NCBI GenBank assembly: GCA_964635565.1
Contig: CAZWON010000006.1
Location: forward strand, 10,837-74,836
Direction: 5' to 3'
DNA length: 64,000 bases
Source of the DNA: an uncultured Planctomycetia bacterium
Lineage (GTDB): Bacteria; Omnitrophota; Gorgyraeia; Duberdicusellales; 4484-171
The position numbers and the translations under genes are program-made. Below are positions 39,768 to 64,000 of the stretch, piece after piece (position 1 is the stretch's first letter; each line of letters opens with the position of its first letter). The notes under the pieces were generated by a model. The model saw nothing but the letters and a program-made list of their open reading frames with translations. It was not told where the DNA came from and ran no database searches.

Positions 39768-39844
39768 AATTTCCTCCTCTTACTTATTAAAAGTTAAAGA
39801 ATTAATAACCTGCATTTTATAGCCCTTAGTTTATAGTTTATATC

Positions 39845-39890
39845 TTAACGAGTTTAATATGGACAATGAACTAAAAGCTATAAGCTAATT
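39845..39890. repeat. Degenerate copy of the box element (AAGCTATAAGCTAATTTTTATTCC)
   Basis: Lies between the mcsB stop and the clpC start, about 105 nt upstream of the clpC start. Confidence 0.45.
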
Positions 39891-40940: not shown

Positions 40941-41433
40941 TTTCAGATTTTTCTTTTTTCTTCAACTCTTTTATCTGGTCTCTAATCATTGCTGCTTCTT
41001 CATAGGCCTCTATCTGTATCGCCTTTTTAAGTCTTTCTCTTAAAATAGCTAACTTTTTATCTACAATTATTTCCTCCTTTACCGTGGGAGGAAACTTCCC
41101 TTTGTGTTGAGTGGTACTGTGGACTTTTTTAATAATAGGAAAAAGCTGATCCTTAAAAGTAAAATAACAATTAGCGCATCCTAAACGACCTTTTTTCTTA
41201 AAATCATAGAAGGTAATTCCACAGAAAGAACATCGGATATCCTTAAGTTTCTTATCCAAGTCCTCCTGAATAGTTAAATTACTTAAGAACTCAGAGATAC
41301 TCAAATGCTGTTTAAGCTCTTCTGCTTTAAGACGAGCACACTCCTGACAAATATGGAATTCCATAATCTTATCGTCCATAATCTCTGTAAGATGAACAGT
41401 CGCTATATTCTTATGACATATATCACACAACAT
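40933..41433 (-). CDS. mcsA: McsA-like activator (zinc fingers plus UVR motif)
   Basis: CDICHKN ... CQECA and CSFCG ... CANCY zinc-binding pairs. C-terminal UVR-like EAYEEAAMIRDQIKELK. Confidence 0.75.
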   Translation of the reverse strand: MLCDICHKNIATVHLTEIMDDKIMEFHICQECARLKAEELKQHLSISEFLSNLTIQEDLDKKLKDIRCSFCGITFYDFKKKGRLGCANCYFTFKDQLFPIIKKVHSTTQHKGKFPPTVKEEIIVDKKLAILRERLKKAIQIEAYEEAAMIRDQIKELKKKEKSENV

Positions 41434-46049: not shown

Positions 46050-46607
46050 TTAGGGGAAAGATATCTTTACAATGGTTAAACGAGAAATGGCAATAGGCGA
46101 GTTTTCTTCTTTAGGACTTATATTTAATTTCTCTACAGTTAAAATTTCTTTTGCTGACTCTATCCGATAAAGAAAACTTATTATTTTAGGCATATCTCCT
46201 TCGCAATTTAAATCTACATAGTATTTAATAATATTGTTTTCCTTCTTGATAGCAGAGGGTCTTATGTTAAGAAGATTAACCGAAGATTTGCGGGCAAAGT
46301 CTTCTATCAATTTTAGAAGACGATTCATCTCTTCATCATCGGAACCTGCTTTTTTTAAATAGGCACTGTAGTAGGAAGATTCTTTATTTATCTTCTCCTT
46401 TAAAGAAAGAAAACGTAAATCTTTCTGGATAATAAGTCTTTCCTTATCTATCTTTTCATCTAAGGATTCTATCTTCATAAAGGCGGGAGAAATCAACAAT
46501 CTGTCGAGAAAAGCCAAGAACACAAATACAATACTGCAATAGAATACAATCCTTTCTCTTTTAGATAATTTCTCTATAATAGCAGTTAACTGACCTATAT
46601 TAAACAT
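46050..46607 (-). CDS. GspM / PilO-like inner-membrane assembly protein
   Basis: Single N-terminal TM plus periplasmic domain. Last gene of the Gsp/Pil cluster. Confidence 0.5.
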   Translation of the reverse strand: MFNIGQLTAIIEKLSKRERIVFYCSIVFVFLAFLDRLLISPAFMKIESLDEKIDKERLIIQKDLRFLSLKEKINKESSYYSAYLKKAGSDDEEMNRLLKLIEDFARKSSVNLLNIRPSAIKKENNIIKYYVDLNCEGDMPKIISFLYRIESAKEILTVEKLNISPKEENSPIAISRLTIVKISFP

Positions 46608-48087
46608 TACTTTGAGTGGTCATTTTTAATTTAATTCCTACCTCAAAATCAGCAACTTCCTTATCTTCTTCTTTTCTTTTTGAAGTATAGCGCATTTTAA
46701 CTTCTTTAAATAAATCATCTTTACTTAAGTCTTCCACAAAAGAATAAATCGTAGTCATTGAGTCTGCAGTCCCTTTTATAGACAAAGAACTTGTTTCTCT
46801 GGTAAATCTAATATCGCTTATCGTTATAGCGGGAGAAAGATTTTTATAAATTCTATATATGATCTCTAAAGAATATCCTCTCTGGATAAGAAAGCGTTTT
46901 ATAAGCTGAGTGGTGCGGAATTTACTTTCTAAGGCATTGGCTTCTTTATGGATAACTTGAGAACGTTCTTTAAGCTTATCTAAATATATACTTCTAAATA
47001 CTATCTTACTGGCGACTAATATAAAAATAACTACTATAATGGAAAAAGAAAAAAATCCCATCCAGATTATCTGGCGACTTCTTTCCTCAAATGCTCTTTT
47101 GAGTTTAATCTCTTCGGGAAAGAGATTGATTTCTGTATTTTTATTCTCAAAAGAAGAAGCAATCACATCTAAGAACAAAGAAGGATTCACAGTAGAAAAC
47201 ATTTTTTTTACCTTTTCCCTTAAAACCAGATAATCTATAAAAGAAACACTTTCTGTAGTAATACCTATTGTATTATTCAGAAAAGGAGTTAAACCTTTAT
47301 ATTTTGTTGTAGGCATAAGAAGAAGAATCCTCTGAGGAACTGCTTCTATATCCTCGCTTCTATATACATCCAGAGATTTCTTTATTTCCTCTACAAATTG
47401 AGTAACATATCGTGTATAGTCCTCCTCGAGATGACGGTTTCCTATAGGAATACTCCGAGCAAAAACAGAATTTCCTCCAAAAACAATATTAAAATAACTG
47501 AAAGAACTATCAAGGTACAAAAAACCTGTAGGAAAATCGTCATTACTCAACTTAAATACTTCGGAAATAAATCTACCTGTGGTCTCCTGAGCAAAACATA
47601 TTTTTTTTATCTCTATTGCTGTCTTATTAATGATATTCATCTGCCTTCTTATAACCTCCCGCGTAACAATTACCAAAAGAACTTTGGTGTAATTTGCACG
47701 GTAAACCCCCATAATCTTATAATCAATAATGATTTCTTCTCGTGCATAGGGAGTATGACGAGCGGCCTGTAGATTCATAATATCAGCGATTTCCTTAGGA
47801 TCCTGGGAAGGAATCTCAATATTTTTGGTAATAGCCAGATGAGTGGGAATAACTAATACTATATTGGAATTCCTTAATTTTGTATCCTTAAAAAAAATTT
47901 TTATCTTCTCTGCTACATCATCATCAGTAAGCCCTCCCAAATCATAACCATATATATCCAAAACTTCACGATGGAATCTTTTTTGTTTAATATGAGCGAT
48001 TCTTAAGCCTCCTCCTCCAATCTGGATACTTATAGCATCCTTACTTTCTCCAAGAATAAAAGCATCTTTAAAATTATCTCCTAACAT
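46600..48087 (-). CDS. GspL-like protein (PilM actin-like ATPase fold fused to a PilN-like TM/periplasmic part)
   Basis: N-terminal PilM-like domain. One TM (IIWMGFFSFSIIVVIFILVA). C-terminal PilN/GspL periplasmic region. Confidence 0.6.
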   Translation of the reverse strand: MLGDNFKDAFILGESKDAISIQIGGGGLRIAHIKQKRFHREVLDIYGYDLGGLTDDDVAEKIKIFFKDTKLRNSNIVLVIPTHLAITKNIEIPSQDPKEIADIMNLQAARHTPYAREEIIIDYKIMGVYRANYTKVLLVIVTREVIRRQMNIINKTAIEIKKICFAQETTGRFISEVFKLSNDDFPTGFLYLDSSFSYFNIVFGGNSVFARSIPIGNRHLEEDYTRYVTQFVEEIKKSLDVYRSEDIEAVPQRILLLMPTTKYKGLTPFLNNTIGITTESVSFIDYLVLREKVKKMFSTVNPSLFLDVIASSFENKNTEINLFPEEIKLKRAFEERSRQIIWMGFFSFSIIVVIFILVASKIVFRSIYLDKLKERSQVIHKEANALESKFRTTQLIKRFLIQRGYSLEIIYRIYKNLSPAITISDIRFTRETSSLSIKGTADSMTTIYSFVEDLSKDDLFKEVKMRYTSKRKEEDKEVADFEVGIKLKMTTQSNV

Positions 48088-49119
48088 TTATTGCTCCCGC
48101 CAGAATAAAATATTTCCCTCTCGGCTCACTATACATTCTATAATCTCTTTAGCCTTTGAGTAACTAAGACTTGCTTCACTATTAATACTGAAATAATCTG
48201 AAGAAACGCCAATAAATCCTTTAGCCACAATATTACTTAAATTTTGCACTTCGCTTATAGAAAGGGAATAGTGCTGGCTTAAAGAAGGTACTACAGAAGT
48301 AGATGAAACAAAAATATTATCGTCCTCTGTCCCCAATTCACTATCTTCTCCCTTACGATAAGTAACTATCTTATCTATAACTGTATCCGTTATTCCAATT
48401 GCGGACAAAACTTCTTCTGAAGCTGTATTAATATTAACAGCCTTATCTCCATAGATAGTAATAAAATCCTTTATTTTATTAAATATATCAAAAGTTATTC
48501 CTTTTACCAGAAGTAACTCATCTAAACTCTCATAATCATCATCTTTACAATCATAAGGCTCACTGAGATTCCTATAATAGCTATCTTCAGCGCTACCCTG
48601 AGGAATCAAAAGATTACTATCCTTGTCTCTAAAATCAATTATAGAAGCAGCAAATTCTTTAGCCTCACTTTCACTTACATTAAGAACTATTTCAAACAAT
48701 CTTTCTATAATCTTCATATCTACTTTGTTTATGTTTATTTTTCTTGCCTCATCGACTACACCAAACATCGTTCTTATTGTACCATCTTGGGGGTAATTAT
48801 AAAATACATTAAATCTTCCTAAACCAATTTTTATATCCTTAAATTCTTCCTTTTTAGAAGCCCACACATCCAAAAAACTATCTATCCTGCTACTGTCATC
48901 TTTTGATATTGCCAAAATAGCTTTATTAACACCTGCCAAAGCAATAAGATGAAGAACATCCCTTTCTCCCAATCTTTTCACAAAAAGTGCCTTCTGCCTT
49001 GCTCCTCTCCCTAAATATAAACTAAAGATAGAAAGTAAAATTAAAACCCATAAAGCAAAGACTAAAATCATTCCCTTTTGATATTCCTTAATCATTTTGT
49101 ATCCAATCTTTAACTTCAC
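48088..49119 (-). CDS. gspK: GspK-like minor pseudopilin
   Basis: N-terminal hydrophobic segment MILVFALWVLILLSIFSL typical of GspK. Length 343 aa. Confidence 0.55.
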   Translation of the reverse strand: MKLKIGYKMIKEYQKGMILVFALWVLILLSIFSLYLGRGARQKALFVKRLGERDVLHLIALAGVNKAILAISKDDSSRIDSFLDVWASKKEEFKDIKIGLGRFNVFYNYPQDGTIRTMFGVVDEARKININKVDMKIIERLFEIVLNVSESEAKEFAASIIDFRDKDSNLLIPQGSAEDSYYRNLSEPYDCKDDDYESLDELLLVKGITFDIFNKIKDFITIYGDKAVNINTASEEVLSAIGITDTVIDKIVTYRKGEDSELGTEDDNIFVSSTSVVPSLSQHYSLSISEVQNLSNIVAKGFIGVSSDYFSINSEASLSYSKAKEIIECIVSREGNILFWREQ

Positions 49120-49711
49120 CTAAAGGTATATTAACCACTCTTTGATAATTAAAGGTACTATTTTTATAACGTAATGATATATATAGACTTACAGATAAAG
49201 GGATATCCTTTGTGTTCCATTCTTCTTTCCAAAAATATTTTTTTTCCTTAAGGTTATAAGAATAATAATTTATCCTAAAATCATCAATATTATTTAAAAG
49301 CAATTGTGTTGTCCCTTCTTTCTCGCGATAAATATCATTTAAATTTTTTAGAACTCTAAATATTTTCTTATTTTTTTTATCCCAATAGTATGTAACTTCT
49401 CCTATACCTTTACTTAAACCAGGAAACTGACTATTTTTTTTTATAAAGGTAGCAAAACTTACTTTTATTTTACTGCCCCTAAAATCTATAGAATTATACT
49501 TAACGGTATTCCTTAAATCGTAAGAAAATTTCTCAAAAAATATTGCTACATCCTCATCACTACTTTCTTTATAAACTCTCTGCCATATTTTTAAGCCACT
49601 ACTAAAAGTAGCAAGTAAAGTAAGTCCTACCACCGAAAATATACCTGCTACAATTACTGCTTCTATAAGAGTAAAATTATTTTTATTAAAAAATCTTCTT
49701 TTTTTCTCCAT
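49088..49711 (-). CDS. Minor pseudopilin (GspJ-like), prepilin-type N-terminus
   Basis: FTLIEAVIVAGIFSVVGL prepilin helix. The residue before Phe is Asn rather than Gly. Confidence 0.55.
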   Translation of the reverse strand: MEKKRRFFNKNNFTLIEAVIVAGIFSVVGLTLLATFSSGLKIWQRVYKESSDEDVAIFFEKFSYDLRNTVKYNSIDFRGSKIKVSFATFIKKNSQFPGLSKGIGEVTYYWDKKNKKIFRVLKNLNDIYREKEGTTQLLLNNIDDFRINYYSYNLKEKKYFWKEEWNTKDIPLSVSLYISLRYKNSTFNYQRVVNIPLGEVKDWIQND

Positions 49712-49722
49712 AAAATATTTCT

Positions 49723-50220
49723 TTACTCCTTCTTAAAATAAATATAAGTAGCGCGCACTAATTCTATATTTCTCTTACTCTCTCTCCATTTAACTTTTAA
49801 TGTTATTCTGTACATATCTATCTTATCTGTTCCTTCAGAAAAAGAATACGAAAGGTCCCATAAGAATTTTTTATTATATACATCAAAATATCCTCTGGTC
49901 TGGGGAAAAAGAGGAGCTTTATATCGCTTTAAATCATTTTCAATGCTCTCTATTTTATTATCCATCCACAGTTGGGCATATATATAATGTTGAGCATATG
50001 AAGAAACATTAAGGGAGGTAAAAAAACTTTCGTATATAAAAAGGATTCCTGTAACAAGAATAACTACTGCAACAATAAGCTCAACAAGAGTAAAGTAAGC
50101 CTTCCAAACTCTTTTTTTACCAAGAAAGTTATTGCAAGGAGAGATTTCATTATTTATATCTAATATGGAAATAATTTCTTTATTCCCAATTGGTAATATC
50201 GTCTTCGCTTTCTTTACCAT
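49723..50220 (-). CDS. Minor pseudopilin (GspI/H-like), prepilin-type helix. The 5' end is uncertain.
   Basis: FTLVELIVAVVILVTGILF with Glu at +5. The called ORF has a 41-aa leader and overlaps gspG by 41 nt. Confidence 0.5.
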   Translation of the reverse strand: MVKKAKTILPIGNKEIISILDINNEISPCNNFLGKKRVWKAYFTLVELIVAVVILVTGILFIYESFFTSLNVSSYAQHYIYAQLWMDNKIESIENDLKRYKAPLFPQTRGYFDVYNKKFLWDLSYSFSEGTDKIDMYRITLKVKWRESKRNIELVRATYIYFKKE

Positions 50221-50617
50221 CTCTTCCTAAAGAATACAAATCATAATCAGGTTTATGCCTTCCTGGAGAAACATACCGATATTTTCTCCCCCACGGATCA
50301 AGGGGTTCCTTTTCTAAATAAGGACCATTCCAGTTTGGTGCCCCTGAAGGTTTCTTCAAAAGAGCTTCTAAGCCCTCATCAGTAGTAGGAAAAACTCCAT
50401 TATCCAGCTCATAAAGCTTAAGAGCAGTAGCGATATTAACCTGAATATCTGCTTTAGCAGCTGCTCTTCTTGCCTGTTCTCCTCTTCCTGCAAGACGAGG
50501 AAACACCATTGCTACTAATGCACCAATAATAATAACTACAAGCATAAGCTCAATAAGGGTAAATCCTTTAGATACAATAATTTTCTGGCCAATATATCTT
50601 ATCTTCATTATTAACAC
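50180..50617 (-). CDS. gspG: Type II secretion major pseudopilin GspG
   Basis: KG|FTLIELMLVVIIIGAL prepilin site. GspG C-terminal signature DPWGRKYRYVSPGRHKPDYDLYSLGRDGKESEDDITNW. Confidence 0.85.
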   Translation of the reverse strand: MLIMKIRYIGQKIIVSKGFTLIELMLVVIIIGALVAMVFPRLAGRGEQARRAAAKADIQVNIATALKLYELDNGVFPTTDEGLEALLKKPSGAPNWNGPYLEKEPLDPWGRKYRYVSPGRHKPDYDLYSLGRDGKESEDDITNWE

Positions 50618-50629
50618 CTCCTTAAATCT

Positions 50630-51478
50630 TTAATCTTTACGATAGTATTTTTTCCATTCTCTCTCTAAATCCTCGATAGTATTAAAATAGTTTGCGTAAG
50701 AAGTGCGCAATGCCTCCTCTATGCTTTTACCATCACGTAACTGACGACAAAAATCTGTAAATCTCTTATTCCCATATTTCTCAATTAGGAAGCCTACCAG
50801 TGATACTGCCTCTAAATAGTAAAGATTAATAAGGTTTTTGCCTGTCATAATAAGAACTAAGGGAATACCGTTATCATTGGTATAACGGACATATATTTTA
50901 TCAGTAGACTTTATATTTCTTATGTCCATTTTCATCATATCACGCAGAGAAAGCAATGTTTTCTTTCTAAATGTATCATTTATTATATCCTCTATTGCGT
51001 CTCTCTTTGATTTTTCTTCCCACTGGGCAATTCCTTCATCAAGCCACAGAGGGATAAAGCTTGTAAACCCTACGAAATCTCTAAACATAAGGTGAGTAAT
51101 CTCATGAGGTAAAATGGAATCAAGGAATCCTTTACCCCTAAAATAACCCATAATTATCTTTTTGGTATAATCCGCCATACCATGAGACCAGTTAGGCATA
51201 TTACTTGCTTTAAGATAAGATTGGTGACTGGGATAGATGTATATCCTTACTCTTTTATCCCACAGCCAGAACTTCGAATAACGTTCATAACCTAAATCCC
51301 GGGCAATATCTATATAATATTTTTCTGCACAGGAGAGAACTTCTTGAGCAAAGGATAAATGCTGAGGATAATAATACACGATAAAATGTGTTCCTTTAAG
51401 TCGAGAAAAATCATCCTCTGCAAAAAGGAGAGAGTTAAAACTTAAAAAGAAAAGAATAAAAACTATTATCCTCTTCAT
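50630..51478 (-). CDS. Secreted peptidase-MA-like zinc metalloprotease
   Basis: Signal peptide. HEITH followed by WLDEGIAQW, which matches the Peptidase_MA_2 pattern HExxH ... W.xEG.A. Confidence 0.55.
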   Translation of the reverse strand: MKRIIVFILFFLSFNSLLFAEDDFSRLKGTHFIVYYYPQHLSFAQEVLSCAEKYYIDIARDLGYERYSKFWLWDKRVRIYIYPSHQSYLKASNMPNWSHGMADYTKKIIMGYFRGKGFLDSILPHEITHLMFRDFVGFTSFIPLWLDEGIAQWEEKSKRDAIEDIINDTFRKKTLLSLRDMMKMDIRNIKSTDKIYVRYTNDNGIPLVLIMTGKNLINLYYLEAVSLVGFLIEKYGNKRFTDFCRQLRDGKSIEEALRTSYANYFNTIEDLEREWKKYYRKD

Positions 51479-52687
51479 TTATCTAACCATAATATTTATT
51501 TGAAAAATAGGAAGGAGCATTGCCAGCACAATAAAACCTACAATTGAACCTATAAAAAGAATCATTATGGGTTCTAAAACAGTAGTGAAAACCTTTGTTC
51601 CTTCTTCTAATTCTTCCTCATAAATTGTGGCTAATTCTCCTAATGTCTCGTCCAACCTGCCTGATTCTTCTCCAATAGAAATCAAACTCGTAACAAAAGG
51701 AGGAAACATTTTTGACTGCCCCAAAGATGTTCCCAGCGATGCGCCATCTTCTAACTCTTTTATACTTTTCAAAAACTCACTCTTTATAACCTCATTATTC
51801 AAGATAGGAATGACAAGATTTAACCCTCTTAGTATAGGGATTCCACTTTTTATTAGAATTTCTAAGGTCCTACTTAAAAGGGCTATATCCTTTTTAAAAA
51901 CAAAATCTTTTAATACAGGAATACGTAACTTTAAAATACTTAAAAAAACCCTAACCTCTTTTCTCTTTCTCTGCCGAAGATAAATAAGAAGAAATACACA
52001 TAAAGAAATTACTATAAGGGGCCATTTTTCTTTTAGGAGAGTACTTAAAGAAATTAGAATACGTGTAGGTAAAGGAAGTTGGGAACCTAATTCAGAAAAA
52101 ATATTCATAAGGCGAGGGACCACAAAAGAAAGCATAAATATCACTGTTCCCACCCCTACTAATAACATGATTATAGGATAAACCAAAGCAATTTTTACTT
52201 TAGAAAATATATCTGCTTGCTTCTGACGATAATTTGCAATCCTTAATAAAACCTCCTCTAATTTACCACTATCCTCTCCTGCTTTTACCATAGAAGTATA
52301 AAAATTAGAAAATACCATAGGAAATTTGGCTAATGCAGAAGAGAAACTCTGGCCTTCTTTTATCTCGGAATGCAATTTTAGAACAACTCTCTTAAAATAA
52401 CTATTTTGCATCTGGTGAGAAATTATTTCCAAAGCTCTTAGGATAGGAACCCCTGCTTTAATAAGAATAGCTATCTGTCTCGTAAATACTGTAATTGTGC
52501 GAAAACTTACCCTTTTAAATAAAACTCTTTTAGAAGGAATATCTTTAAGAACTTTTTCTTCTAATCTTACAGGAAAATATCCCATTTCTTCTATTTTCTT
52601 AAGTGCTGATTCTTTGTTAGATGCTTCTATTTCTCCTTCAACTACTGTCTGGGGGTCAGTTTTTGCACGATAATAATAGATAGCCAT
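51479..52687 (-). CDS. gspF: Type II secretion / type IV pilus platform protein GspF/PilC
   Basis: Two GspF repeats. Three TM segments. Length 402 aa. Confidence 0.85.
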   Translation of the reverse strand: MAIYYYRAKTDPQTVVEGEIEASNKESALKKIEEMGYFPVRLEEKVLKDIPSKRVLFKRVSFRTITVFTRQIAILIKAGVPILRALEIISHQMQNSYFKRVVLKLHSEIKEGQSFSSALAKFPMVFSNFYTSMVKAGEDSGKLEEVLLRIANYRQKQADIFSKVKIALVYPIIMLLVGVGTVIFMLSFVVPRLMNIFSELGSQLPLPTRILISLSTLLKEKWPLIVISLCVFLLIYLRQRKRKEVRVFLSILKLRIPVLKDFVFKKDIALLSRTLEILIKSGIPILRGLNLVIPILNNEVIKSEFLKSIKELEDGASLGTSLGQSKMFPPFVTSLISIGEESGRLDETLGELATIYEEELEEGTKVFTTVLEPIMILFIGSIVGFIVLAMLLPIFQINIMVR

Positions 52688-52787: not shown

Positions 52788-54896
52788 TTATTTCTCTTCC
52801 CTAACAAAATAGTTTATTCGTGTTCTTTCACTTCCTGTAAGGTCCAAAAAACAAATACCTATCTCATATCTATCTATTTCCTCAGCAGGTTTAGACCAGA
52901 CAACTTTAGCTAAACATACAATAGGGTCTTTACCATCAGGTAACTCCATATTAACCTCTAAGATTGAACCTATGGGGATTTCTTCAGGAGCAATAAAAGC
53001 AACACCTCCCGCACTGATATTTTTTGTCGTAGTAAATTTATCCCATAAATATCCTTTTTTGGTAAGTTCCTCTTTTGATTTTATAATACGATAAAGAATA
53101 CGAATACGGGCATCTAATCTTTTAAAAGCCCGCTGTTCTAAAAAAATACTGGCTTCTCTTAAAGAAGTCTTTTCTTCATAAAGAAACCTCTTATCTTCAC
53201 TTGATACTACTCTCATAACCTCTTCAGGGGTGGTTATTCCTTCCATAACTTTATACCAACCATCTTGCCTTAAAGTATTCATACCTCTTTGAATAGCAAT
53301 CTTTTTTATTTCCTCTGAAGGAGCTCTTTCTATTACTAAATTTCTAATTACCTCGTCCATTAAAAGAATCTCATATATACCTGTTCTACCCAGATAACCC
53401 GTAAAATTGCATTTCTCACAGCCTCTACCTTTAAAAATTCTTAACTCTTCTGGTGAGGTTAATGACAAATCTTGTGCAATTTGGTTTTTAAGTTCAACGG
53501 ATAACTCTTTATCGTCCTCTTTACAATGAGGACAAATTACTCGCACCAATCTCTGAGCAATGAACGCTTCAATACTTGAGGAAACAAGATAAGGTTCTAT
53601 CCCAACATCAATTAACCTAGCTACCCCACTAGCAGAATCTTTAGTATGAAGAGTAGAAAACACCAAATGGCCTGTTAAAGCCATTCTTATGGCAATCTCT
53701 GCGGTCTCTAAGTCGCGTACCTCTCCTACCATAATAATATCAGGATCATGCCTTAAAATACTACGTAACCCACGGGCAAAATCTAAACCTATATCTGGCG
53801 CTACTTGTATCTGAGTAATACCTTTGAGTTCATATTCAATGGGGTCCTCAATAGTAATAATCTTTCTATCGCGGGTATTAAGTTTGCTTAAGCAAGCATA
53901 AAGAGTTGTGGTCTTACCACTTCCTGTAGGGCCAGTAATAAAAATAATACCGTTGGGTTTTGAGATGAGTCTCTCTACAATCTTTAAATCATTATCAGAA
54001 AACCCTAATCTTTCTAAACTGAAAAGCATTTTTGTAGGAAGAATTCTAATCACCATGCTTTCTCCATAAGGAGTAGGAAGGGTAGAAATTCTTAAATCTA
54101 AATTCTGCTCCCGCGTCTTAACTATTGTACGACCATCCTGAGGAAGCCGTTTTTCTACAATATTGAGATTGCACATTATTTTTATACGGGAAATAATGGG
54201 TAGAATAAATTTCTTTACTTCTTTAGAAATATTGGCATCGTACAATACTCCATCAATACGATAACGAATAGAAACCTCTCCTCGGTAAGGTTCAATATGA
54301 ATATCGGTAGCTCTTCTTTTATAAGCTTCAAATATTATCTGATTAACTAACTTCATTATAGAAGCATCTTCGGCTAACTCTTCTATATCTTCTATTTCTT
54401 TTACCGTAAAATCTTTCGGTTTGGTAGAGAGAGAAATTTTATCCACGGTATCTGCTCCTAAACCATAATGACGTTTTAAACTCTCATAAATATCCTCCTC
54501 TAAGGAAAGTTTCATTTCTATATTACATCCCAAGTGAATCATCAACTCATCCTGGGTCTTTATATTAAAAGGATAGGCAACTGCGATAACTAAAGTATTG
54601 TTTTTCTTAAGTTGCAAAGGGAAAAAGTGATAATAAAAAGCAATGCGTGCCGATACTTTCTTTAATGCTTCTTTATCTAAAGAGAGATTATTCAAATCCA
54701 CTACTTCTAAAGCTAATTCTTCAGCTAAAGCATTTAAAGCTGTTTTTTTATCAACGATTCCTTTTTTAGAAATAGCCAAGATAAAACTTTCTTTAGTAGA
54801 TGCTATTTCTTTCGCAACCTCCTCTGCCACTTCAGAAGAAATTACTCCTCTTTTAACAAGAATGCTCTTAATTTGTGTATCATATCTTCCTGCCAT
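52788..54896 (-). CDS. gspE: Type II secretion ATPase GspE with a C-terminal PilZ domain
   Basis: T2SSE_N N-terminal domain. Walker A GPTGSGKTT. Tetracysteine CPHC ... CEKC. The C-terminal ~125 aa carry PilZ motifs RAFKR (RxxxR) and NISAGG (D/NxSxGG). Confidence 0.85.
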   Translation of the reverse strand: MAGRYDTQIKSILVKRGVISSEVAEEVAKEIASTKESFILAISKKGIVDKKTALNALAEELALEVVDLNNLSLDKEALKKVSARIAFYYHFFPLQLKKNNTLVIAVAYPFNIKTQDELMIHLGCNIEMKLSLEEDIYESLKRHYGLGADTVDKISLSTKPKDFTVKEIEDIEELAEDASIMKLVNQIIFEAYKRRATDIHIEPYRGEVSIRYRIDGVLYDANISKEVKKFILPIISRIKIMCNLNIVEKRLPQDGRTIVKTREQNLDLRISTLPTPYGESMVIRILPTKMLFSLERLGFSDNDLKIVERLISKPNGIIFITGPTGSGKTTTLYACLSKLNTRDRKIITIEDPIEYELKGITQIQVAPDIGLDFARGLRSILRHDPDIIMVGEVRDLETAEIAIRMALTGHLVFSTLHTKDSASGVARLIDVGIEPYLVSSSIEAFIAQRLVRVICPHCKEDDKELSVELKNQIAQDLSLTSPEELRIFKGRGCEKCNFTGYLGRTGIYEILLMDEVIRNLVIERAPSEEIKKIAIQRGMNTLRQDGWYKVMEGITTPEEVMRVVSSEDKRFLYEEKTSLREASIFLEQRAFKRLDARIRILYRIIKSKEELTKKGYLWDKFTTTKNISAGGVAFIAPEEIPIGSILEVNMELPDGKDPIVCLAKVVWSKPAEEIDRYEIGICFLDLTGSERTRINYFVREEK

Positions 54897-54946: not shown

Positions 54947-55579
54947 TCACCGCCTCCTACTTCCTGCCTTATTCTTTCTTATCCAATTAAGCAGAGCTTC
55001 TGCATAATCATCTCTACCAAGAGCTCTTAAACGTTTTACTTCTTTTAGGGCACTTGCCTTATCTCCACTATTAAAATAGGCTCCTCCTAAAGCTACATAA
55101 GCATTAAAATAATCGGGCTTAAGCATTGTGCATTTCTTCAATGACTGAACCGCTTTATTATAATCTTTCATACTCATATAAACAAGACCTAAATGATAAT
55201 ATAACAAGGGATTTTTTGGCTGAATAATTCTTGCTTTCATAAAATATCTGATTGCTTCTTCATAATCTTTTTTAGAAGCGAAAATTAACGCTAAGTTATA
55301 ATAAGCACTAAAACTTTTAGGATTAAGTTTTATAACTTTCTTATAACAACTAATTGCTTTGTTATAATCTTTTTTTAGCCCGTAAATAAGCCCTAACTGT
55401 AAATAAGCAATACTATGGGAAGGGTCAATTTTTATAATTTCTTTATATTCTCTTATAGCAGAATCATAATCCTGTTTTTTAACATAAGCATTAGCCTTTT
55501 CGAACCTATCAGCAATCTCGCCGCAAAAAGCATTAAATGAGAATAAAAATATTAGTAAAAATAAATTTATTAACTTCAT
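54947..55579 (-). CDS. TPR-repeat protein with signal peptide (PilF/PilW-like candidate)
   Basis: Signal peptide ending FNAFC. Five to six TPR units (AIREYKEIIKIDPSHSIAYLQLGLIY and so on). Directly upstream of gspE. Confidence 0.65.
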   Translation of the reverse strand: MKLINLFLLIFLFSFNAFCGEIADRFEKANAYVKKQDYDSAIREYKEIIKIDPSHSIAYLQLGLIYGLKKDYNKAISCYKKVIKLNPKSFSAYYNLALIFASKKDYEEAIRYFMKARIIQPKNPLLYYHLGLVYMSMKDYNKAVQSLKKCTMLKPDYFNAYVALGGAYFNSGDKASALKEVKRLRALGRDDYAEALLNWIRKNKAGSRRR

Positions 55580-55606: not shown

Positions 55607-57013
<1,407 letters not shown>

Positions 57014-57027
57014 TTAATAACCAATTT

Positions 57028-57090
57028 ATAGCTTATGGTTTTTTAGTAGAAACTAAAAAGTTAAACCATAAGCTAAATTTTATTTGCTAT
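57028..57090. repeat. 13-bp perfect hairpin (TAGCTTATGGTTT / AAACCATAAGCTA) plus box element between atpG and atpD
   Basis: Arms at 57029..57041 and 57063..57075. Followed by aattttatttgctatttact, which is shared with 60590..60612. Confidence 0.7.
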
Positions 57091-57104
57091 TTACTACAAG
57101 TATT

Positions 57105-57959
57105 TTACTTCTGTGCTTTCCGCTCAAAAATCATTCTTGCTGCAAATAATTCTCTCATACTTCTATCGGTTAATTCATGACGGAGACGAAAATATTTATA
57201 TTTCAGTTTCTCATCCAGTTCTTCAATTTTATGAGTGCAATCTTCTAAATGCATAAATCGAGCAGCAAACTCAGCCAATCTACTCATCATAAGAATTTCA
57301 TATATTCTTTTTACTATCCAGAGATAAATTAAATATTCCACTACTTGCTCTATATAAGACTCCCAAACAAATCCATAAATATCTATTTGTTTGTTACCCT
57401 CTTTAAGGTGACCACAAGGTAGAAGGGTTTCTATCTCTACTCGCTGAACAGCTAAAGAGTACGCTTTAGGATAAATTATCTTAACTTTACCTATACTACC
57501 TTTTATCACTTCTTTTAATATATAACTCTGAAGAGCTACTGCCTGTTCACCAACATAGTCTTCTTTAATTCCTTCCATATATACACAATTTATCCCTCTT
57601 TCTCGCACATAGATTCTTCCTCTCTCTCCTACAACAATAAGCCTTCCTTTCTGTTTTGATAGCTCAATAAATGCTTTATTTATTACCTGCATATTAAGTC
57701 CCCCTAAAAGCCCTGCGTCAGAAGTGATAGCAATAACTCCTAAAAGGTTGCTTGAAGGTGTAATAAAGGGATGGGATATATCTTTTAAATCTATACTGCC
57801 AAGAAATTCTTCTACTACCCGAGAAAACTTCTCAAAAGGATGAACTTTTCCTTCAAAAGCATAAAATTGAGAAATGGCGATCCCTTTAAGAACTTTAAGA
57901 AGCTCGGCTAACCCTTTGTAGAAATCCCTATCCCTTTTTACATCAGAAATAAAAGCCAT
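57105..57959 (-). CDS. atpG: F-type ATP synthase gamma subunit (divergent)
   Basis: Length 284 aa. C-terminal helix LAEFAARFMHLEDCTHKIEEL aligns with the gamma EHAARMxAM block. Sits between alpha and beta. Confidence 0.7.
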   Translation of the reverse strand: MAFISDVKRDRDFYKGLAELLKVLKGIAISQFYAFEGKVHPFEKFSRVVEEFLGSIDLKDISHPFITPSSNLLGVIAITSDAGLLGGLNMQVINKAFIELSKQKGRLIVVGERGRIYVRERGINCVYMEGIKEDYVGEQAVALQSYILKEVIKGSIGKVKIIYPKAYSLAVQRVEIETLLPCGHLKEGNKQIDIYGFVWESYIEQVVEYLIYLWIVKRIYEILMMSRLAEFAARFMHLEDCTHKIEELDEKLKYKYFRLRHELTDRSMRELFAARMIFERKAQK

Positions 57960-57973
57960 TTATTATTATTTAC

Positions 57974-59461
57974 CTAACCCTTCTTACTAAAATACTTCTG
58001 TAAGAAAGAATATAATACTTCCTGAATTTTATCAGTAACAATCTTCTGTTCTCGTAATCTAGAAATAACTTCAGGATATTCTTTCCTAAGAGCATACAGA
58101 CAATACTGCTTAAAATCCCTGATTTCTGAAGAAGAAAGATTATCCAGTATTCCCAAACTTAAGGCATAAAGATAAATTATCTGCTCCTCAATCTCAATAG
58201 GAGCATTTTTAGGCTGGATAAGAAGATGAGTTATTATTTCTCCTCTTTTTAAAGAACGTTCCGCCTCTTTAGAAAGACTGGTAGCACGTAGCTGTGTCAT
58301 CTGAAGAAGCTCTTTGTACTGAAGATACCCCAAACGCAAGTTTCTACTTAAAGCTTTCATTGCTGGCCATTGTGCTTTACTGCCAATACGGGAGACAGAA
58401 AGACCTAAATCAATTGCTGGTCTAAATCCTTTATTAAAGAGTGAGGTGCTAAAATATATTTGGCCATCGGTCATAGAAATAATATTTGTAGAAATATATC
58501 CGGTGACATCCCCATGTTGAATCTCTACAATAGGGAAAAAAGTCATTGAACCCCCTCCTAATTCAGGGCGAAGTTGACCTGCTCTTTCCATAAGTTGAGA
58601 ATGAATATAGAAAATGTCTCCCGGATAAGCTTCTCTACCTGGCGCTCTTCCTAAGAGCAAAGATATCTGCCTGTAGACCCAGGCATGACGGGTCAAATCA
58701 TCAAAAACAACAAGAACATCTTTTCCTTTATGCATAAAATATTCTCCCAGCATGCAAGCGGTATAAGGAGCAAGGTATTGTTCTCCTGCTGAAGTAGAAG
58801 CAACACCGCTTACTACAATTGTATAGGAAATAGCATCTTTTTCTTTTAGAATATCCAGAATCTTAACTAAATTAGAATAAGGTTTGCCAATGCAACAATA
58901 TATACACACTACATTTTTACCTTTCTGATTAAGAATAGTATCTATAGCTACGGTGGTTTTACCTGTTAATCTATCTCCAATAAGTAGCTGGCGCTGGCCT
59001 TTACCAATGGGGATAGTAGCATCTATGGTAAGTATTCCTGTTTCAAGAGTTCTATCTACAGGAACCCTATCTAATACCCCAGGTGCATCTCTAAAAACAG
59101 GATATAATCTATCTGTTTTAATCTCTCCCAACCCGTCCTGAGGCTGACAAAGACTGTCTACTACTCTACCTAAGAAAGCTTCTCCCACAGGAAGCGATAG
59201 AAACTGACCTTTATTATAAACCTCTTCTCCTGCTTTTATATCTACAGCAGAACCTAAAACAAGAATCTGAACTTCATCTTCAACAAATCCAATGACTATG
59301 CCTTTAAGACCATTAAAAAATTCAACCATCTGACCATTAACACAACTAGGTATACCACGAGCAAAAACAATAAATTTCTGGACTGATTTTATAGTCCCTA
59401 CTTCACGAATATCTACAGAATAATTAATATTTTGGTTTAAGTTATTTATCCCTTCTTCCAT
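57974..59461 (-). CDS. atpA: F-type ATP synthase alpha subunit
   Basis: P-loop GDRLTGKTTVAIDTILNQ. Blocks LAPYTACMLGEYF, YRQISLLLGRAPGREAYPGD. Confidence 0.9.
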   Translation of the reverse strand: MEEGINNLNQNINYSVDIREVGTIKSVQKFIVFARGIPSCVNGQMVEFFNGLKGIVIGFVEDEVQILVLGSAVDIKAGEEVYNKGQFLSLPVGEAFLGRVVDSLCQPQDGLGEIKTDRLYPVFRDAPGVLDRVPVDRTLETGILTIDATIPIGKGQRQLLIGDRLTGKTTVAIDTILNQKGKNVVCIYCCIGKPYSNLVKILDILKEKDAISYTIVVSGVASTSAGEQYLAPYTACMLGEYFMHKGKDVLVVFDDLTRHAWVYRQISLLLGRAPGREAYPGDIFYIHSQLMERAGQLRPELGGGSMTFFPIVEIQHGDVTGYISTNIISMTDGQIYFSTSLFNKGFRPAIDLGLSVSRIGSKAQWPAMKALSRNLRLGYLQYKELLQMTQLRATSLSKEAERSLKRGEIITHLLIQPKNAPIEIEEQIIYLYALSLGILDNLSSSEIRDFKQYCLYALRKEYPEVISRLREQKIVTDKIQEVLYSFLQKYFSKKG

Positions 59462-59467
59462 TATTAT

Positions 59468-60193
59468 TTAAACTTCATTTATTAGCTGGCGTGCTCCTTC
59501 CTTTATCTTCCACTTCAAACTAGCATCAATTACTAAACTTCCTATATTAATTAATAAACCAGACAATAAAGAAACGTCTTTTTCCTTTATAAACTCTATG
59601 TTCTTGCCTATTTTTTCCTTTAACTTAGAAGAAATAACATCAAACTTACTATCATCAAGGTCAAAAGCGCTTTTTATTACTGCAAAGGAGGCATCTACAT
59701 TTTGAGAAATGCTCAATTTATCAATCCCTGCATGAATAAATTCATCCACTAAATGATTATGTAATATTAAACGGACCTCTTGGCTAAGTGCTTTATCCAA
59801 TAAACTAACTGCTTCCTCTATTGCCTTTTCTTTGATTTTTCTTTCCATTTCCAAAATAAGATTCTGGCGAGCTTTTTCTGCCTGTTTTATCATTTCTTCA
59901 CTTTCCTGGCGGGCCTTCTCAATAATCTTCTCTTTCTGGGCGTTAGCTGATTGCTGAATTGCTTGCTTAATCTTTTCTGCTTCTTCTTTTGCTTCAGAAA
60001 TTTTCTTCTGATACATCTGGTTTATCTCATCTAAACGTTTATCTACCTCTTCCTGTTTTTTCATGTAATCTCTGGTAAGAACATCTAAATGCTGTGTAGC
60101 AGAAGTTATGTTTTTGGATAAAACTTTTTTAAGCAAGAATACAAGAAAAGCAAATATAATAACCTGAAATACTATTAAAACTACAAGCAACAT
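59468..60193 (-). CDS. atpF: F-type ATP synthase subunit b fused to a delta (OSCP) C-terminal-domain-like region
   Basis: N-terminal TM and charged coiled coil (b-like). The C-terminal approximately 100 aa (DVSLLSGLLINIGSLVIDASLKWKI) resemble the delta C-terminal domain. No separate delta gene is present. Confidence 0.6.
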   Translation of the reverse strand: MLLVVLIVFQVIIFAFLVFLLKKVLSKNITSATQHLDVLTRDYMKKQEEVDKRLDEINQMYQKKISEAKEEAEKIKQAIQQSANAQKEKIIEKARQESEEMIKQAEKARQNLILEMERKIKEKAIEEAVSLLDKALSQEVRLILHNHLVDEFIHAGIDKLSISQNVDASFAVIKSAFDLDDSKFDVISSKLKEKIGKNIEFIKEKDVSLLSGLLINIGSLVIDASLKWKIKEGARQLINEV

Positions 60194-60922: not shown

Positions 60923-61726
60923 TTATTCTTTAATATCGGTAGATTCGGAAGACTCTTCTTCCCCAAAAGAAATTTTTTTTGCTTCTGAAATTATATCATG
61001 AGTTGCCCGGGAAGAACGGTACCAAGTAAAGAAAAACACCAAAGAAAGTAACCCAATAAAAATAATAATGGAAAAAATTACTATCCAAGTAGCAGTTTTT
61101 GTAGGCGAGAGAGTTTTAAACTTACTCTCAGCAAGAATATCAGGAGTAAGAGGACCAGTCTTTGTCTCTAAAAGTTTCTCCATGTCGCTAATCTCATCTT
61201 TAAGGCGGGAAAGGCTCTTAATATTGGCACGATACACACCAATATGCTGAGAACGACTTATGGTATCATCGCTCTGGGATTTTATTATTTCCGCAATGAG
61301 AGAATTGGCACGCTCAGAAAGTTTCTTCACTTCATCATAATGGGAAGAGCCTTTAAATGATACTAAAAGTTTATCAATCCTTCTCTTTACTCCTTCTATT
61401 TCTTCAGAAGGAATGAGCCAGATATCCTCTATTTCTACTTCAAAAATTTTCGTCTGGCGGGGCTTTAATATTACTCCATTATCATATACATAATAGAGAG
61501 ATTTCTGGGAATCAAAATCTAACTTAAGCCCTCCTAAGTCTATAATGTTTTTGGGCTTTACCTCCTCAGGTAAATAAACTTTTACCGGTACAAACTGGGT
61601 TTTTACAGAGGAAGGATTTATGGCAACAATTCGAAAACGGATATTATCACCCCAGCAAAAAAAAGGAAATAATATCCCTATTATAAATAAAATATTAAGC
61701 ATTTTTTTTTGAAAAGAAAAAAACAT
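60923..61726 (-). CDS. Hypothetical membrane-anchored protein (signal peptide plus C-terminal TM)
   Basis: N-terminal hydrophobic leader. C-terminal TM WIVIFSIIIFIGLLSLVFFF followed by an acidic tail. No recognisable family. Confidence 0.45.
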   Translation of the reverse strand: MFFSFQKKMLNILFIIGILFPFFCWGDNIRFRIVAINPSSVKTQFVPVKVYLPEEVKPKNIIDLGGLKLDFDSQKSLYYVYDNGVILKPRQTKIFEVEIEDIWLIPSEEIEGVKRRIDKLLVSFKGSSHYDEVKKLSERANSLIAEIIKSQSDDTISRSQHIGVYRANIKSLSRLKDEISDMEKLLETKTGPLTPDILAESKFKTLSPTKTATWIVIFSIIIFIGLLSLVFFFTWYRSSRATHDIISEAKKISFGEEESSESTDIKE

Positions 61727-61826: not shown

Positions 61827-64000
61827 CTACTGTAAAACTGTTGAAACAATGGGTGCGTCCATGCCACCGAATTTAGCCTCAAACAGAGCCTGAAGAATTC
61901 TTAAAACACCCTCTATAGTATCTGTTTTCTTCCTAATTGCCTTAATTGTAGGGGACTCACTGAGTTTCTCTTCAAGTATCTCACTAATATCATAACCCTG
62001 ACCAGCTGCTAACTCAGTTAATTTATCTGTAATCTCGTTTAAAGTGCTAGTAACTATAGGGCTTGCTCCTTGGTTTGCAATAATCGAAGGAAGTTCTTCT
62101 ACAGATTCCTGTAAATTCTTTAAAGTAATTGCAATACTTACTCCGTCTTCGCTTCCAATAGTAGCTTCTAATGCTTTTACTAAATCTAAAGTTTTCTTAG
62201 CAGCTCGTTCAGCCTCAGGAGCAGCAGAGGCTAACCCTGCAATAGTAGTTATAGACATTTCCTCTACTGAACCAGAACCTGTAACTAATCCTCCAGTAGT
62301 CTGTTCACTAACAGTATAGGTATAAGCCTTTCCAGGGGTAAAGCGTGTATCTGCATTAAATTCAAAAATATATAAACCAGGAGTTGTCTCCGTCATTACC
62401 CAATCCTTTACAATAGATTGGTTATCCCAACTGTATATATTCACCATAGGATAAAGTCCGCTGGGTCCTTGAACCTGCAAAGTAATGGCTTCTCCGCTTA
62501 AAGCAGGATTAGGTGATACTGTTGCTTTCCAAGAATATTTCTTAGCTGTTGCTTCTAATTCCTCACCTGCAGCTACTGCCTGTTCCGCACCTGCTTGGAG
62601 TTGCTCAATAGCCTCTGTGGTGCGTTCTTCAAAACTTGTTAAGGTTTCATCTACAGCGCTAACCATTTCATCGGTCTTTGTCTCAATAATAGTTTTTTGC
62701 TCTTCCATCTTCTGGTCAATAAGGTCAGTCTGGTCTTGTAGTGTCTGTTGTATTTCTGCATTCACCTCTGATATAGGTTTATCCAAAACTGCATTTACAG
62801 TATCCTGAACATCCTGTAATTTTGTTTCCGCAGTAATAGTAAAGGAATCTGGCGTTTTAAAGTGGGCACCACTGGCATTAGTAATATCTGTAATAGTTGT
62901 ATATACTTTCCCTGCAATAAGAGTTGTAGGATTCCATATAGAACTAAAGAAACCTGCAGGATCAGGGCTTGTATCAACTAAATGGGCAATTTCTTGTTCA
63001 GTTTCTGGGTCATAGATATATACATCTGCCTGAATACCACCACTTACTACAAATCCATCTCGTTCAAGCCAGCTACTTACACTGAGAGTATCTGTCGTTG
63101 GGTCGTAGGCAAAATCAGAGTAAGCCCGCCAAATATGGATAGCTGTTGTTTCCATAAAAATAGTCTCGTTCTCTGTCCCTACTAAAGGCTCATCTCTATC
63201 CAAAAGGAAACTAATCTGCTTATCACCATAACCAGTCTTTGACCACACGAGCGTCCAGAAACCATAAGGAAGCTCAACAGTACAAGGTGAACCTAAAGGT
63301 GCGCCAGGATTACCTGGCATCTCTGAGGTCTGCCAAACATCCCCTTTATCGGAAGAGCCATCAACGGTAAGTTGAGATAAGTTCTCATTAGTTAAAAGAT
63401 CCCTTATGTTAAAAGTCACAGAATAATAGTCTATAATAAAGTTATCATCGGAGGTATCGTTAACAGTAACATCACGAATATCAGAAACTCTCACCTTTAC
63501 AGTGGTTGAACGATCATCAGGAATTGTCCAAGCATAAGAATTAGGGGAAATCGTATTATCATAGGAAGAAACAATAGTATGAAGATCGGTATTAAAATTA
63601 TCTTTAGAATACTCAATATTTACTAAAGGAATTGAACCTTGTGTAGTTTCCCACGTAATATTGTGTTCTTCTCTTGTAACCCACCGTTCTCCACCATTAG
63701 GAGAAGTAATATGTAAGATTCCTCTCACAATAGAACAATCACTATCAGAGGCATCAAAAGCATCAGAATCAGTTGCACTCATCACTCTTACTCTAATTGT
63801 CTCAATCCTACTCTCTCCTTGAGGAGGAGCATTAGGAACTTTCCAGATATAACTTCCTGTATTAGGGGTTGAAGAAACAATGGCATAATCAAAAGTCAAT
63901 CCACTATCTTTAGAATAATCTAATCTTACATTATCTACGGTTCCTACACAACTCCAACTAACTGTGTAATCCTCACCTACAGTAAGTTCTTCTCCGCCAT
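61827..64000 (-). CDS. Large Ser/Thr/Asp-rich surface or secreted repeat protein, 5'-truncated by the window edge
   Basis: The track start at 63899 is a TTG. Own reading shows the frame stays open to 64000. Repeated YSKD..T.....N.....Y.W.IP units. A central Q/E-rich coiled-coil segment. Confidence 0.5.
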   Translation of the reverse strand, partial: GGEELTVGEDYTVSWSCVGTVDNVRLDYSKDSGLTFDYAIVSSTPNTGSYIWKVPNAPPQGESRIETIRVRVMSATDSDAFDASDSDCSIVRGILHITSPNGGERWVTREEHNITWETTQGSIPLVNIEYSKDNFNTDLHTIVSSYDNTISPNSYAWTIPDDRSTTVKVRVSDIRDVTVNDTSDDNFIIDYYSVTFNIRDLLTNENLSQLTVDGSSDKGDVWQTSEMPGNPGAPLGSPCTVELPYGFWTLVWSKTGYGDKQISFLLDRDEPLVGTENETIFMETTAIHIWRAYSDFAYDPTTDTLSVSSWLERDGFVVSGGIQADVYIYDPETEQEIAHLVDTSPDPAGFFSSIWNPTTLIAGKVYTTITDITNASGAHFKTPDSFTITAETKLQDVQDTVNAVLDKPISEVNAEIQQTLQDQTDLIDQKMEEQKTIIETKTDEMVSAVDETLTSFEERTTEAIEQLQAGAEQAVAAGEELEATAKKYSWKATVSPNPALSGEAITLQVQGPSGLYPMVNIYSWDNQSIVKDWVMTETTPGLYIFEFNADTRFTPGKAYTYTVSEQTTGGLVTGSGSVEEMSITTIAGLASAAPEAERAAKKTLDLVKALEATIGSEDGVSIAITLKNLQESVEELPSIIANQGASPIVTSTLNEITDKLTELAAGQGYDISEILEEKLSESPTIKAIRKKTDTIEGVLRILQALFEAKFGGMDAPIVSTVLQ

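Follow-up and report, generated by a model that had tools for sequence, protein, structure and literature searches.

A GspE/PilB-family ATPase fused to a C-terminal PilZ domain, a candidate c-di-GMP receptor in cis, in Omnitrophota

The fusion gene and its domains

We analysed a stretch of 64,000 nucleotides (the window in what follows) from contig CAZWON010000006.1 of assembly GCA_964635565.1, deposited as an uncultured Planctomycetia bacterium and placed by GTDB in the Omnitrophota. On its minus strand lies a gene for a protein of 702 amino acids (aa) in which a secretion ATPase of the GspE/PilB kind is followed, in the same open reading frame (ORF), by a PilZ domain, a probable receptor for cyclic di-GMP (c-di-GMP). 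An initial annotation, made from the letters of the sequence, had proposed this fusion, and the Pfam matches to T2SSE and PilZ within one ORF bear it out. The interval it had singled out, 52788-53170, corresponds to residues ~576-702 and runs from within the linker through the PilZ domain to the stop codon; both PilZ motifs are present where it had placed them. The gene and its parts are as follows.

52788..54896, minus strand: ATPase-PilZ gene, 702 aa plus stop (ORF list, Pfam and NCBIfam scans)
54459..54896, minus strand: MshEN-like N-terminal domain, residues 1-146, with degenerate c-di-GMP motifs (PF05157)
53211..54377, minus strand: T2SSE ATPase core, residues 174-562 (PF00437, E 1e-131)
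53907..53933, minus strand: Walker A motif GPTGSGKTT, residues 322-330 (regular expression; invariant in 70 sequences)
53409..53534, minus strand: tetracysteine zinc motif C455, C458, C493, C496 (all four invariant in the family alignment)
53133..53210, minus strand: flexible linker between ATPase and PilZ, residues 563-588 (low AlphaFold confidence, variable in the family)
52803..53138, minus strand: PilZ domain, residues 587-698 (PF07238, E 4.4e-15)
53118..53132, minus strand: RxxxR motif, R589-A-F-K-R593 (conserved in the family)
53004..53021, minus strand: (D/N)xSxxG motif, N626-I-S-A-G-G631 (conserved in the family)

The PilZ assignment is clear in the profile scan. PF07238 matches with 56.3 bits, the gathering score being 22.5, and covers profile positions 1-100 of 102, and the C-terminal tail taken in isolation gives 60.4 bits. 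At the other end of the protein the MshEN profile matches residues 62-146 (E 2.4e-13). Between them the ATPase core is complete: the Walker A motif, the DPD..GE.RD region (D384, G391, E392, R394, D395) and the four cysteines are invariant in the family. Its scores fall just short of the cutoffs of both relevant NCBIfam models, with 571.6 bits against 630.25 for GspE (TIGR02533) and 553.5 against 675.65 for PilB (TIGR02538). Judged by these scores, therefore, the ATPase is a member of the GspE/PilB superfamily that belongs to neither named equivalog. Current annotations of such proteins read "ATPase, T2SS/T4P/T4SS family" or even "TadA". The nearest solved structures for residues 9-568 are those of Geobacter PilB (5TSG, 6OLJ; E ~1e-128), and all of them stop at about query residue 565.

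The two parts are joined by a linker whose length and sequence vary among the homologues. In the AlphaFold model the predicted local distance difference test (pLDDT) falls below 50 at residues 573-589. A six-frame search of the whole window for the paired pattern RxxxR...[DN]xSxxG, in ORFs of at least 60 aa, returned the ATPase-PilZ ORF and one other, on the plus strand at 13651-14115. Since the coordinates of the latter overlap a peptide deformylase gene on the minus strand, we took it as a chance match.

Reality and distribution of the fusion

A protein of this kind might be an artefact, that is, an assembly chimera, a frameshift or a read-through that joins a GspE gene to a small pilZ gene. 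A preprint reports small stand-alone pilZ genes to be frequent in the vicinity of Omnitrophota giant genes (10.1101/2023.11.21.568195), and the linker is of low complexity and poorly conserved, so that the idea is not without grounds. However, the ORF is uninterrupted, and the identical 702-aa protein is found on five contigs. Two of the five contigs belong to assemblies with different names, ENA ERZ1742239 and Logan SRR6823441, and carry the same neighbouring genes. All of the 120 best homologues (55-86% identity, 697-753 aa) have PF05157, PF00437 and PF07238. We also surveyed the GTDB species representatives, one genome for each species, using an alignment of seven PilZ-domain sequences as the query, which gave 80 loci. 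A locus was called complete if the 5' end of the fusion gene was not cut by the end of the contig, as was the case for 67. In all 67 complete loci, which come from the genomes of other species, Walker A and PilZ lie in a single ORF. The identical copies on five contigs and the single-ORF fusion in 67/67 complete loci exclude the artefact, to which we assign next to no probability. The in-frame extension proposed in the initial annotation has thus held up both in independent assemblies and in the survey of homologues.

The fusion is real and conserved across the Omnitrophota under strong purifying selection. The G+C content of the six fusion loci that were checked ranges from 37 to 64%, and we therefore regard the fusion as an old and stable architecture. 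An exhaustive HMMER search with residues 441-702 against 1.84 billion cluster representatives gave 48 clusters at E <= 1e-30. The full-length clusters fall into two kinds, namely the fusion described here (728-779 aa; seven were checked with Pfam) and tandem double ATPases that have no PilZ domain. All named fusions among the looked-up matches of this search belong to Candidatus Omnitrophota, including one at 33% identity.

The tandem proteins of about 1000 aa had been candidates for larger PilZ fusions; we rejected them, as Pfam shows T2SSE-T2SSE and no PilZ. They are unusual in their own right. The ATPase query matched twice in P0137, P0145, P0147, P0150, P0152, P0155, P0157, P0159, P0167 and P0174, and the five that were scanned with Pfam (P0137, P0145, P0152, P0167 and P0174) have two complete T2SSE cores in tandem, P0174 with a T2SSF stretch in addition.

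Most of the 80 species-scan loci are titled Omnitrophota, and about a dozen carry other submitter labels (approximately nine Planctomycetia or Planctomycetales, one Deltaproteobacteria, one Eisenbacteria, one Patescibacteria and three unclassified). Among these is the nearest genome (L005/L002, CAYVYZ010000005.1), which has an 86% identical protein and was deposited as "uncultured Planctomycetia"; the labels of L063, L079 and L080 are odd as well. The conserved neighbours of the oddly labelled loci are the same wherever the contig allows a comparison, and we therefore suspect an inconsistent labelling, which is probably a better description than a real spread of the gene. All named homologues of the cysteinyl-tRNA synthetase of the window are from Omnitrophota or Omnitrophica. 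The window also encodes LptF/LptG and an Mla system, and the organism is therefore diderm.

The PilZ domain

We compared the PilZ motifs in 121 aligned sequences. R589 is found in all of them, as are N/D626 and G631, while R593 is kept in 120/121 and S628 in 116/121. The motifs are retained even in the most divergent fusions (33% identity), and the stretch that separates them ranges in length from ~30 residues to over 50. Among the 80 species loci, 77 fit the strict pattern RxxxR...(D/N)xSxxG; one of the other three is truncated and two have G for S. Directly before RxxxR, at position 588, 103/121 family members have K or R. In PP4397 and VCA0042 such a residue goes with binding of a c-di-GMP dimer. 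By this analogy, its frequency suggests that an intercalated c-di-GMP dimer would be bound in most orthologues.

The predicted structure gives the same picture. The AlphaFold2 model of residues 575-702 (pLDDT 80.8, predicted template modelling score (pTM) 0.73) forms a beta-barrel with a helix at the C-terminal end (model residues 114-126), which agrees with the six-stranded barrel and terminal helix of canonical PilZ domains; the N-terminal loop that carries RxxxR is disordered. The disorder of residues 573-589 is consistent with the N-terminal loop of a PilZ domain in its unliganded state. When this model was compared with the PDB using Foldseek, the top 42 matches were all PilZ domains. The best was MotI/DgrA (5VX6; E 7e-6, TM 0.70), followed by the P. 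aeruginosa PilZ domain 4XRN, Alg44 (4RT0), PA0012, BcsA (4P00), YcgR, PP4397 and MrkH. Most of these leading matches were crystallised with c-di-GMP, and the match probability is 1.00 for the PilZ domains of MotI, Alg44, BcsA and YcgR. The model therefore agrees with what the initial annotation had read from the motifs: it predicts a canonical PilZ barrel whose best matches are c-di-GMP-bound PilZ domains.

The PilZ domain is also the best-conserved segment of the protein. Compared with the nearest relative it is 96.5% identical, against 91% for the ATPase core and 70.5% for the N-terminal domain, and the respective nonsynonymous rates (dN) are 0.034, 0.058 and 0.184. The ratio of nonsynonymous to synonymous rates, dN/dS, is ~0.02 in this comparison, a figure that is only indicative because the synonymous sites are saturated. 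In summary, the alignment and the model show a canonical-looking PilZ domain under strong constraint, with its predicted fold and the motifs expected to contact c-di-GMP intact.

Could the domain nevertheless act without a ligand? In Xanthomonas and Pseudomonas, "type II" PilZ proteins (PA2960 and XAC1133) serve as adaptors that bind the N-terminal domain of PilB, and the fusion might be a Rosetta-stone version of the PilB-PilZ pair, in which PilZ docks on the N-terminal domain of its own chain or on a partner, irrespective of c-di-GMP. When the tail was searched against PDB sequences, the only PilZ matches were the PilB-binding proteins of Xanthomonas (3DSG, 3CNR and 7LKQ; E 0.02-0.05), which also have the highest identity in the fold search (25-27%). 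Moreover, a search with the N-terminal domain picks out the fragment of X. citri PilB that was co-crystallised with PilZ (7LKM_A, E 3e-5), and the N-terminal domain of X. citri PilB is likewise devoid of c-di-GMP motifs (PMC8389850). On the other hand, E-values of 0.02-0.05 are not significant, and in the fold search the Xanthomonas proteins rank only 44-48 (E 0.04-0.1, ~75 aligned columns), behind canonical ligand-bound PilZ domains. Type II PilZ proteins have neither RxxxR nor (D/N)xSxxG and their barrel is incomplete (10.1101/814665), whereas here both motifs are practically invariant and a full barrel is predicted. We consider a ligand-independent adaptor improbable and prefer the reading of the tail as a c-di-GMP receptor.

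The N-terminal domain

The initial annotation had named a T2SSE_N domain at the start of the protein and had contrasted the fusion with MshE-type ATPases, in which c-di-GMP binds at the N-terminus. The domain is there, T2SSE_N being the same Pfam family as MshEN; its c-di-GMP-binding residues are not. The contrast with MshE is thus sharper than first drawn. An MshEN domain that binds c-di-GMP is defined by two tandem motifs RLGxx(L/V/I)(L/V/I)xxG(L/V/I)(L/V/I)xxxxLxxxLxxQ, five residues apart. HMMER aligns residues 9-73 of the query without gaps to residues 10-74 of V. cholerae MshE (5HTL), and nine key residues of the c-di-GMP motifs of MshE are changed in the window protein: R9 to Q8, G11 to K10, L25 to A24, L29 to A28 and Q32 to I31 in the first motif, and R38 to S37, G40 to I39, L54 to A53 and Q61 to E60 in the second. 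The losses are family-wide. The two Arg positions are occupied by I/L/V and by S/P/N, the two Gln positions by A/I and by K/E, and the relaxed MshEN motif of Wang et al. 2016 (PMC5013675) is found in 0/120 homologues, nor is it present in the window. A similar set of substitutions was held responsible for the lack of c-di-GMP binding by XpsE in the same work.

It is still conceivable that the MshEN-like domain has remained the c-di-GMP site by a divergent mode of binding, with the PilZ domain redundant or in another role, for example in localisation. PF05157 is clearly matched, and in both 24-residue motifs hydrophobic positions are kept (L9, L13, G17, L/I18-19, L38, L42, G46, L54 and L57), which is of interest given that binding by MshEN is largely hydrophobic (Wang et al. 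2016, PMC5013675). However, the positions of Arg9 and Gln32 of MshE, both of which are implicated in binding, are taken by I/L/V (by Q in the window protein) and by A/I, and the glycines at position 3 of both motifs are lost, as are the Arg and Gln of the second motif. The relaxed motif is missing from every one of the homologues, and in the closest pair the domain evolves ~5x faster than PilZ. We judge a binding site of this kind to be very improbable.

According to AlphaFold the MshEN-like domain consists of a helical N-subdomain and an alpha/beta C-subdomain (pLDDT ~84-90). The fold is thus still there, and judging from the substitutions it appears to have been retired as a c-di-GMP sensor. 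Since the N-terminal domain has lost the nine key motif residues of MshE, it is the PilZ domain that looks like the ATPase's own sensor.

The operon and its neighbourhood

The ATPase-PilZ gene heads an operon that resembles a type II secretion system (T2SS), with all genes on the minus strand. The genes around it are the following.

51479..52687, minus strand: GspF platform protein (PF00482, E 2e-61; near the fusion gene in 75/80 related loci)
50630..51478, minus strand: Peptidase_MA_2 (zincin-like) protein with a hydrophobic, signal-peptide-like N-terminus (PF13485, E 7e-17)
50180..50617, minus strand: GspG-type major pseudopilin (PF08334, E 4e-33, and N_methyl)
46050..50220, minus strand: minor pseudopilins (165 aa, GspJ-like, GspK), PilM-PilN fusion (GspL-like), GspM/PilO (Pfam)
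54947..55579, minus strand: TPR protein of 210 aa, directly upstream of the ATPase-PilZ gene (Pfam TPR matches)

The genes at 46050..50220 were assigned from matches to T2SSJ, T2SSK_1st, PilM_2 with PilN, and T2SSM_b/PilO; the 165-aa ORF has a weak N_methyl match. The GspL-like protein of 495 aa (46600-48087, minus strand), with PilM_2 at its N-terminus and PilN at its C-terminus, is a fusion that is kept in L002 and L003. The Peptidase_MA_2 gene, which sits between gspF and gspG, is retained in 57/80 related loci, and its product may serve the system as a processing factor or be one of its substrates. The operon lacks genes for a secretin (GspD), GspC and a prepilin peptidase, as does the rest of the 64-kb window, and the gene lists of the related loci L001-L003 contain none either.

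The initial annotation had stated that no GGDEF, EAL or HD-GYP gene is present in the window, and this proved correct. Pfam finds none among 64 predicted ORFs, for which the minimum length was set at 120 aa in the first 40 kb and at 100 aa in the remainder; four plus-strand ORFs lying across minus-strand genes were excluded. Nor does any ORF of 60 aa or more in the window contain the string GG[DE]EF. GGDEF domains and small pilZ genes have been reported elsewhere in Omnitrophota, where giant genes have been tied to T2SS-like loci (10.1101/2023.11.21.568195); that preprint deals with a different locus and does not mention the ATPase-PilZ fusion. The only cyclic-nucleotide-related gene that we saw in the extended neighbourhood codes for a cNMP_binding-Patatin protein with the architecture of a cyclic-nucleotide-regulated, phospholipase-like protein (L087, 19904-21754), ~7.6-9.5 kb past the left end of the window.

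The slot between atpD and the ATPase-PilZ gene has a different content in most of the relatives. In 47/80 related loci it holds a gene for a stand-alone MshEN protein of 150-165 aa (for example L001 9534-10001 and L003 8998-9471), whereas a TPR protein takes its place in the window and, among the relatives, only in L005 and L043. The motifs of the stand-alone MshEN proteins are near-canonical, for example KRLGDILIEKGLITQEVLDDALREQ-RETKE-FLGAILLRKKRIKEADLLTALSEQ, the sole departure being F for R at the start of the second motif. With such motifs, the stand-alone MshEN protein is a candidate for a second c-di-GMP receptor of the same machine, one that would act in trans.

In some relatives a gene for a single-domain response regulator lies directly upstream of the fusion gene (L003 9626-9991, L004 89-433), and in some a block of histidine kinase and response regulator genes follows gspF (L001 13383-22011). 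Going by these gene neighbourhoods, this suggests an extra two-component input to the same machine in some relatives.

Immediately upstream of the T2SS-like operon of the window, on the same strand, is an operon for an F-type ATP synthase (b/delta fusion, alpha, gamma and beta; 55607-60193, minus strand). The gene for the beta subunit was detected in 62/67 complete related loci, and it is directly upstream wherever the gene order was inspected. At the edge of the window, at 61827-64000 on the minus strand, an ORF listed as 690 aa with a TTG start is the 3' end of a giant gene, its frame being open up to the window edge. On the ENA contig NODE_197 the giant gene encodes at least 4,010 aa and is cut there by the contig end, and the ~7.7 kb beyond the right end of the window belong to it entirely. 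Its tail has only a faint match to the Ig-like Kre9_KNH. Giant genes (minimum lengths 3,298 and 2,835 aa) are also found upstream of the ATP synthase/T2SS cluster in the distant relatives L001 and L003. The protein of 267 aa encoded after the giant gene (60923-61726) was considered as a small pilZ homologue and rejected, as it has no PilZ match at E up to 1.

Farther away, at 37338-41433 on the minus strand, we see a ClpC-like AAA+ protein (Clp_N, AAA, UVR, AAA_2) followed by a McsB-like ATP:guanido phosphotransferase and a McsA-like small protein with a UVR motif. The arginine-kinase/ClpC module is best known from Firmicutes.

Proposed mechanism

We interpret the protein as the assembly ATPase of a T2SS-like (pseudopilus) machine which has acquired a C-terminal PilZ domain as its c-di-GMP receptor in cis, and we put the probability of this at about 0.7. 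In such a mechanism the tethered PilZ domain would bind c-di-GMP between its barrel and the RxxxR loop, as happens in other PilZ domains. Binding would order the flexible linker of ~25 residues and dock the PilZ domain against the ATPase hexamer or against its N-terminal domain. The docked domain might then switch the turnover of ATP or the engagement with the GspL/GspF platform, and in this way the assembly of the pseudopilus, and with it secretion, would be gated by the c-di-GMP level of the cell with no need for a separate adaptor. Whether the ligand switches the machine on or off cannot be read from the sequence; by analogy with MshE and PilB-PilZ-FimX, our guess is that it activates rather than inhibits.

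Several points weigh against this interpretation. We infer both c-di-GMP binding and its coupling to ATPase activity from the conservation of motifs and fold only. In 2/80 species the S of (D/N)xSxxG is replaced by G, and the window protein itself has Q588 and not K/R. The full-length AlphaFold model has a pTM of 0.50. No diguanylate cyclase or phosphodiesterase gene is present in the window, in ~10 kb of its left flank or in ~7.7 kb of its right flank. Finally, most relatives encode a separate, near-canonical MshEN protein, and c-di-GMP may therefore reach the machine by another receptor besides PilZ, or chiefly by that receptor.

A broader picture, which we offer tentatively and hold to be possible rather than probable, is that the c-di-GMP input has been rewired in Omnitrophota: the MshEN domain of the ATPase would have decayed, a PilZ domain would have been fused to it, and the canonical MshEN would mostly survive as a separate protein encoded upstream, so that one receptor in cis and one in trans gate the motor. 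The operon is conserved beside the ATP synthase operon and downstream of the genes for giant proteins; therefore, the system could be a c-di-GMP-controlled device for export or attachment of ultra-small, possibly predatory bacteria.

Relation to earlier work

Sensing of c-di-GMP through MshEN by the ATPases of type IV pili (T4P) and of T2SS is already established, and so are the control of PilB by PilZ in trans and the fusion of PilZ to the enzymes under its control, as in BcsA and Alg44. PilZ is a promiscuous module. What appears to be new is the combination, that is, a canonical PilZ domain in cis on a GspE/PilB motor throughout a phylum, accompanied by a degenerate MshEN domain within the same chain and, in many loci, by a neighbouring stand-alone canonical MshEN protein. 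We found no description of a GspE/PilB-PilZ fusion in the literature searched, the coverage of which is incomplete, so that this is absence of evidence only; the domains of the fusion are nevertheless visible in automatic annotations.

Two routes by which c-di-GMP reaches the motors of T4P and T2SS are known, namely the N-terminal MshEN domain and trans adaptors (PilZ and FimX). If our interpretation is true, a third would run through a canonical PilZ domain covalently joined to the motor at its C-terminus. The lineage provides a natural comparison set, as it keeps a degenerate MshEN domain in the ATPase along with a canonical MshEN protein that stands alone. Although the phylum is uncultured, the fusion yields a hypothesis that lends itself to testing with recombinant protein, namely that c-di-GMP switches a GspE hexamer directly, and the question of which surface is used. 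It is also a starting point for studying how a conserved secretion-like apparatus beside giant genes is regulated in Omnitrophota and, for genome annotation, offers a clean marker architecture at the level of the phylum.

Comparison with known systems

Among the solved homologues the closest are the PilB proteins of Geobacter metallireducens and G. sulfurreducens (5TSG, 6OLJ, 5ZFR), but these end with the ATPase core and have no C-terminal extension. The MshE-type ATPases, such as V. cholerae MshE (VC0405) and PA14_29490 of P. aeruginosa, belong like the window protein to the GspE/PilB family of T4P/T2SS ATPases and share with it the arrangement of MshEN and T2SSE up to residue ~565. They sense c-di-GMP directly within the same polypeptide, as we propose from motifs and models for the window protein too. 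In MshE-type ATPases, however, the ligand sits on the two 24-residue motifs of the N-terminal MshEN domain, whereas in the window protein these motifs are degenerate and the candidate receptor is the C-terminal PilZ domain, which the characterised MshE-type ATPases do not have.

The PilB-PilZ-FimX system of Xanthomonas citri (7LKM; PMC8389850) is comparable in that a PilZ-fold protein is physically coupled to an ATPase of the PilB type with an N-terminal domain that binds no c-di-GMP, the system connecting c-di-GMP with the assembly of filaments. The X. citri PilZ is a protein of its own, with an incomplete barrel and without the motifs; it binds to the N-terminal domain of PilB, and it is FimX that senses c-di-GMP. 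The window protein, in contrast, carries at its C-terminus a covalently fused, canonical PilZ domain that retains both motifs, and no FimX-like GGDEF-EAL protein is encoded in the window.

The cellulose synthase BcsA and Alg44, with a C-terminal or embedded PilZ domain that acts in cis, resemble the window protein in architecture. They too join a canonical PilZ domain to the machine under its control, and RxxxR lies in the linker before the barrel. The controlled module is a glycosyltransferase or a polysaccharide co-polymerase in these proteins, whereas in the window it is a hexameric secretion ATPase. As far as the proposed role is concerned, the likeness is to YcgR and MotI (DgrA), the latter being the best structural match, in which PilZ controls a molecular motor by means of c-di-GMP. 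These are separate two-domain proteins that act in trans on the flagellar motor as brakes or clutches, whereas the PilZ domain of the window protein is joined to its putative motor in cis.

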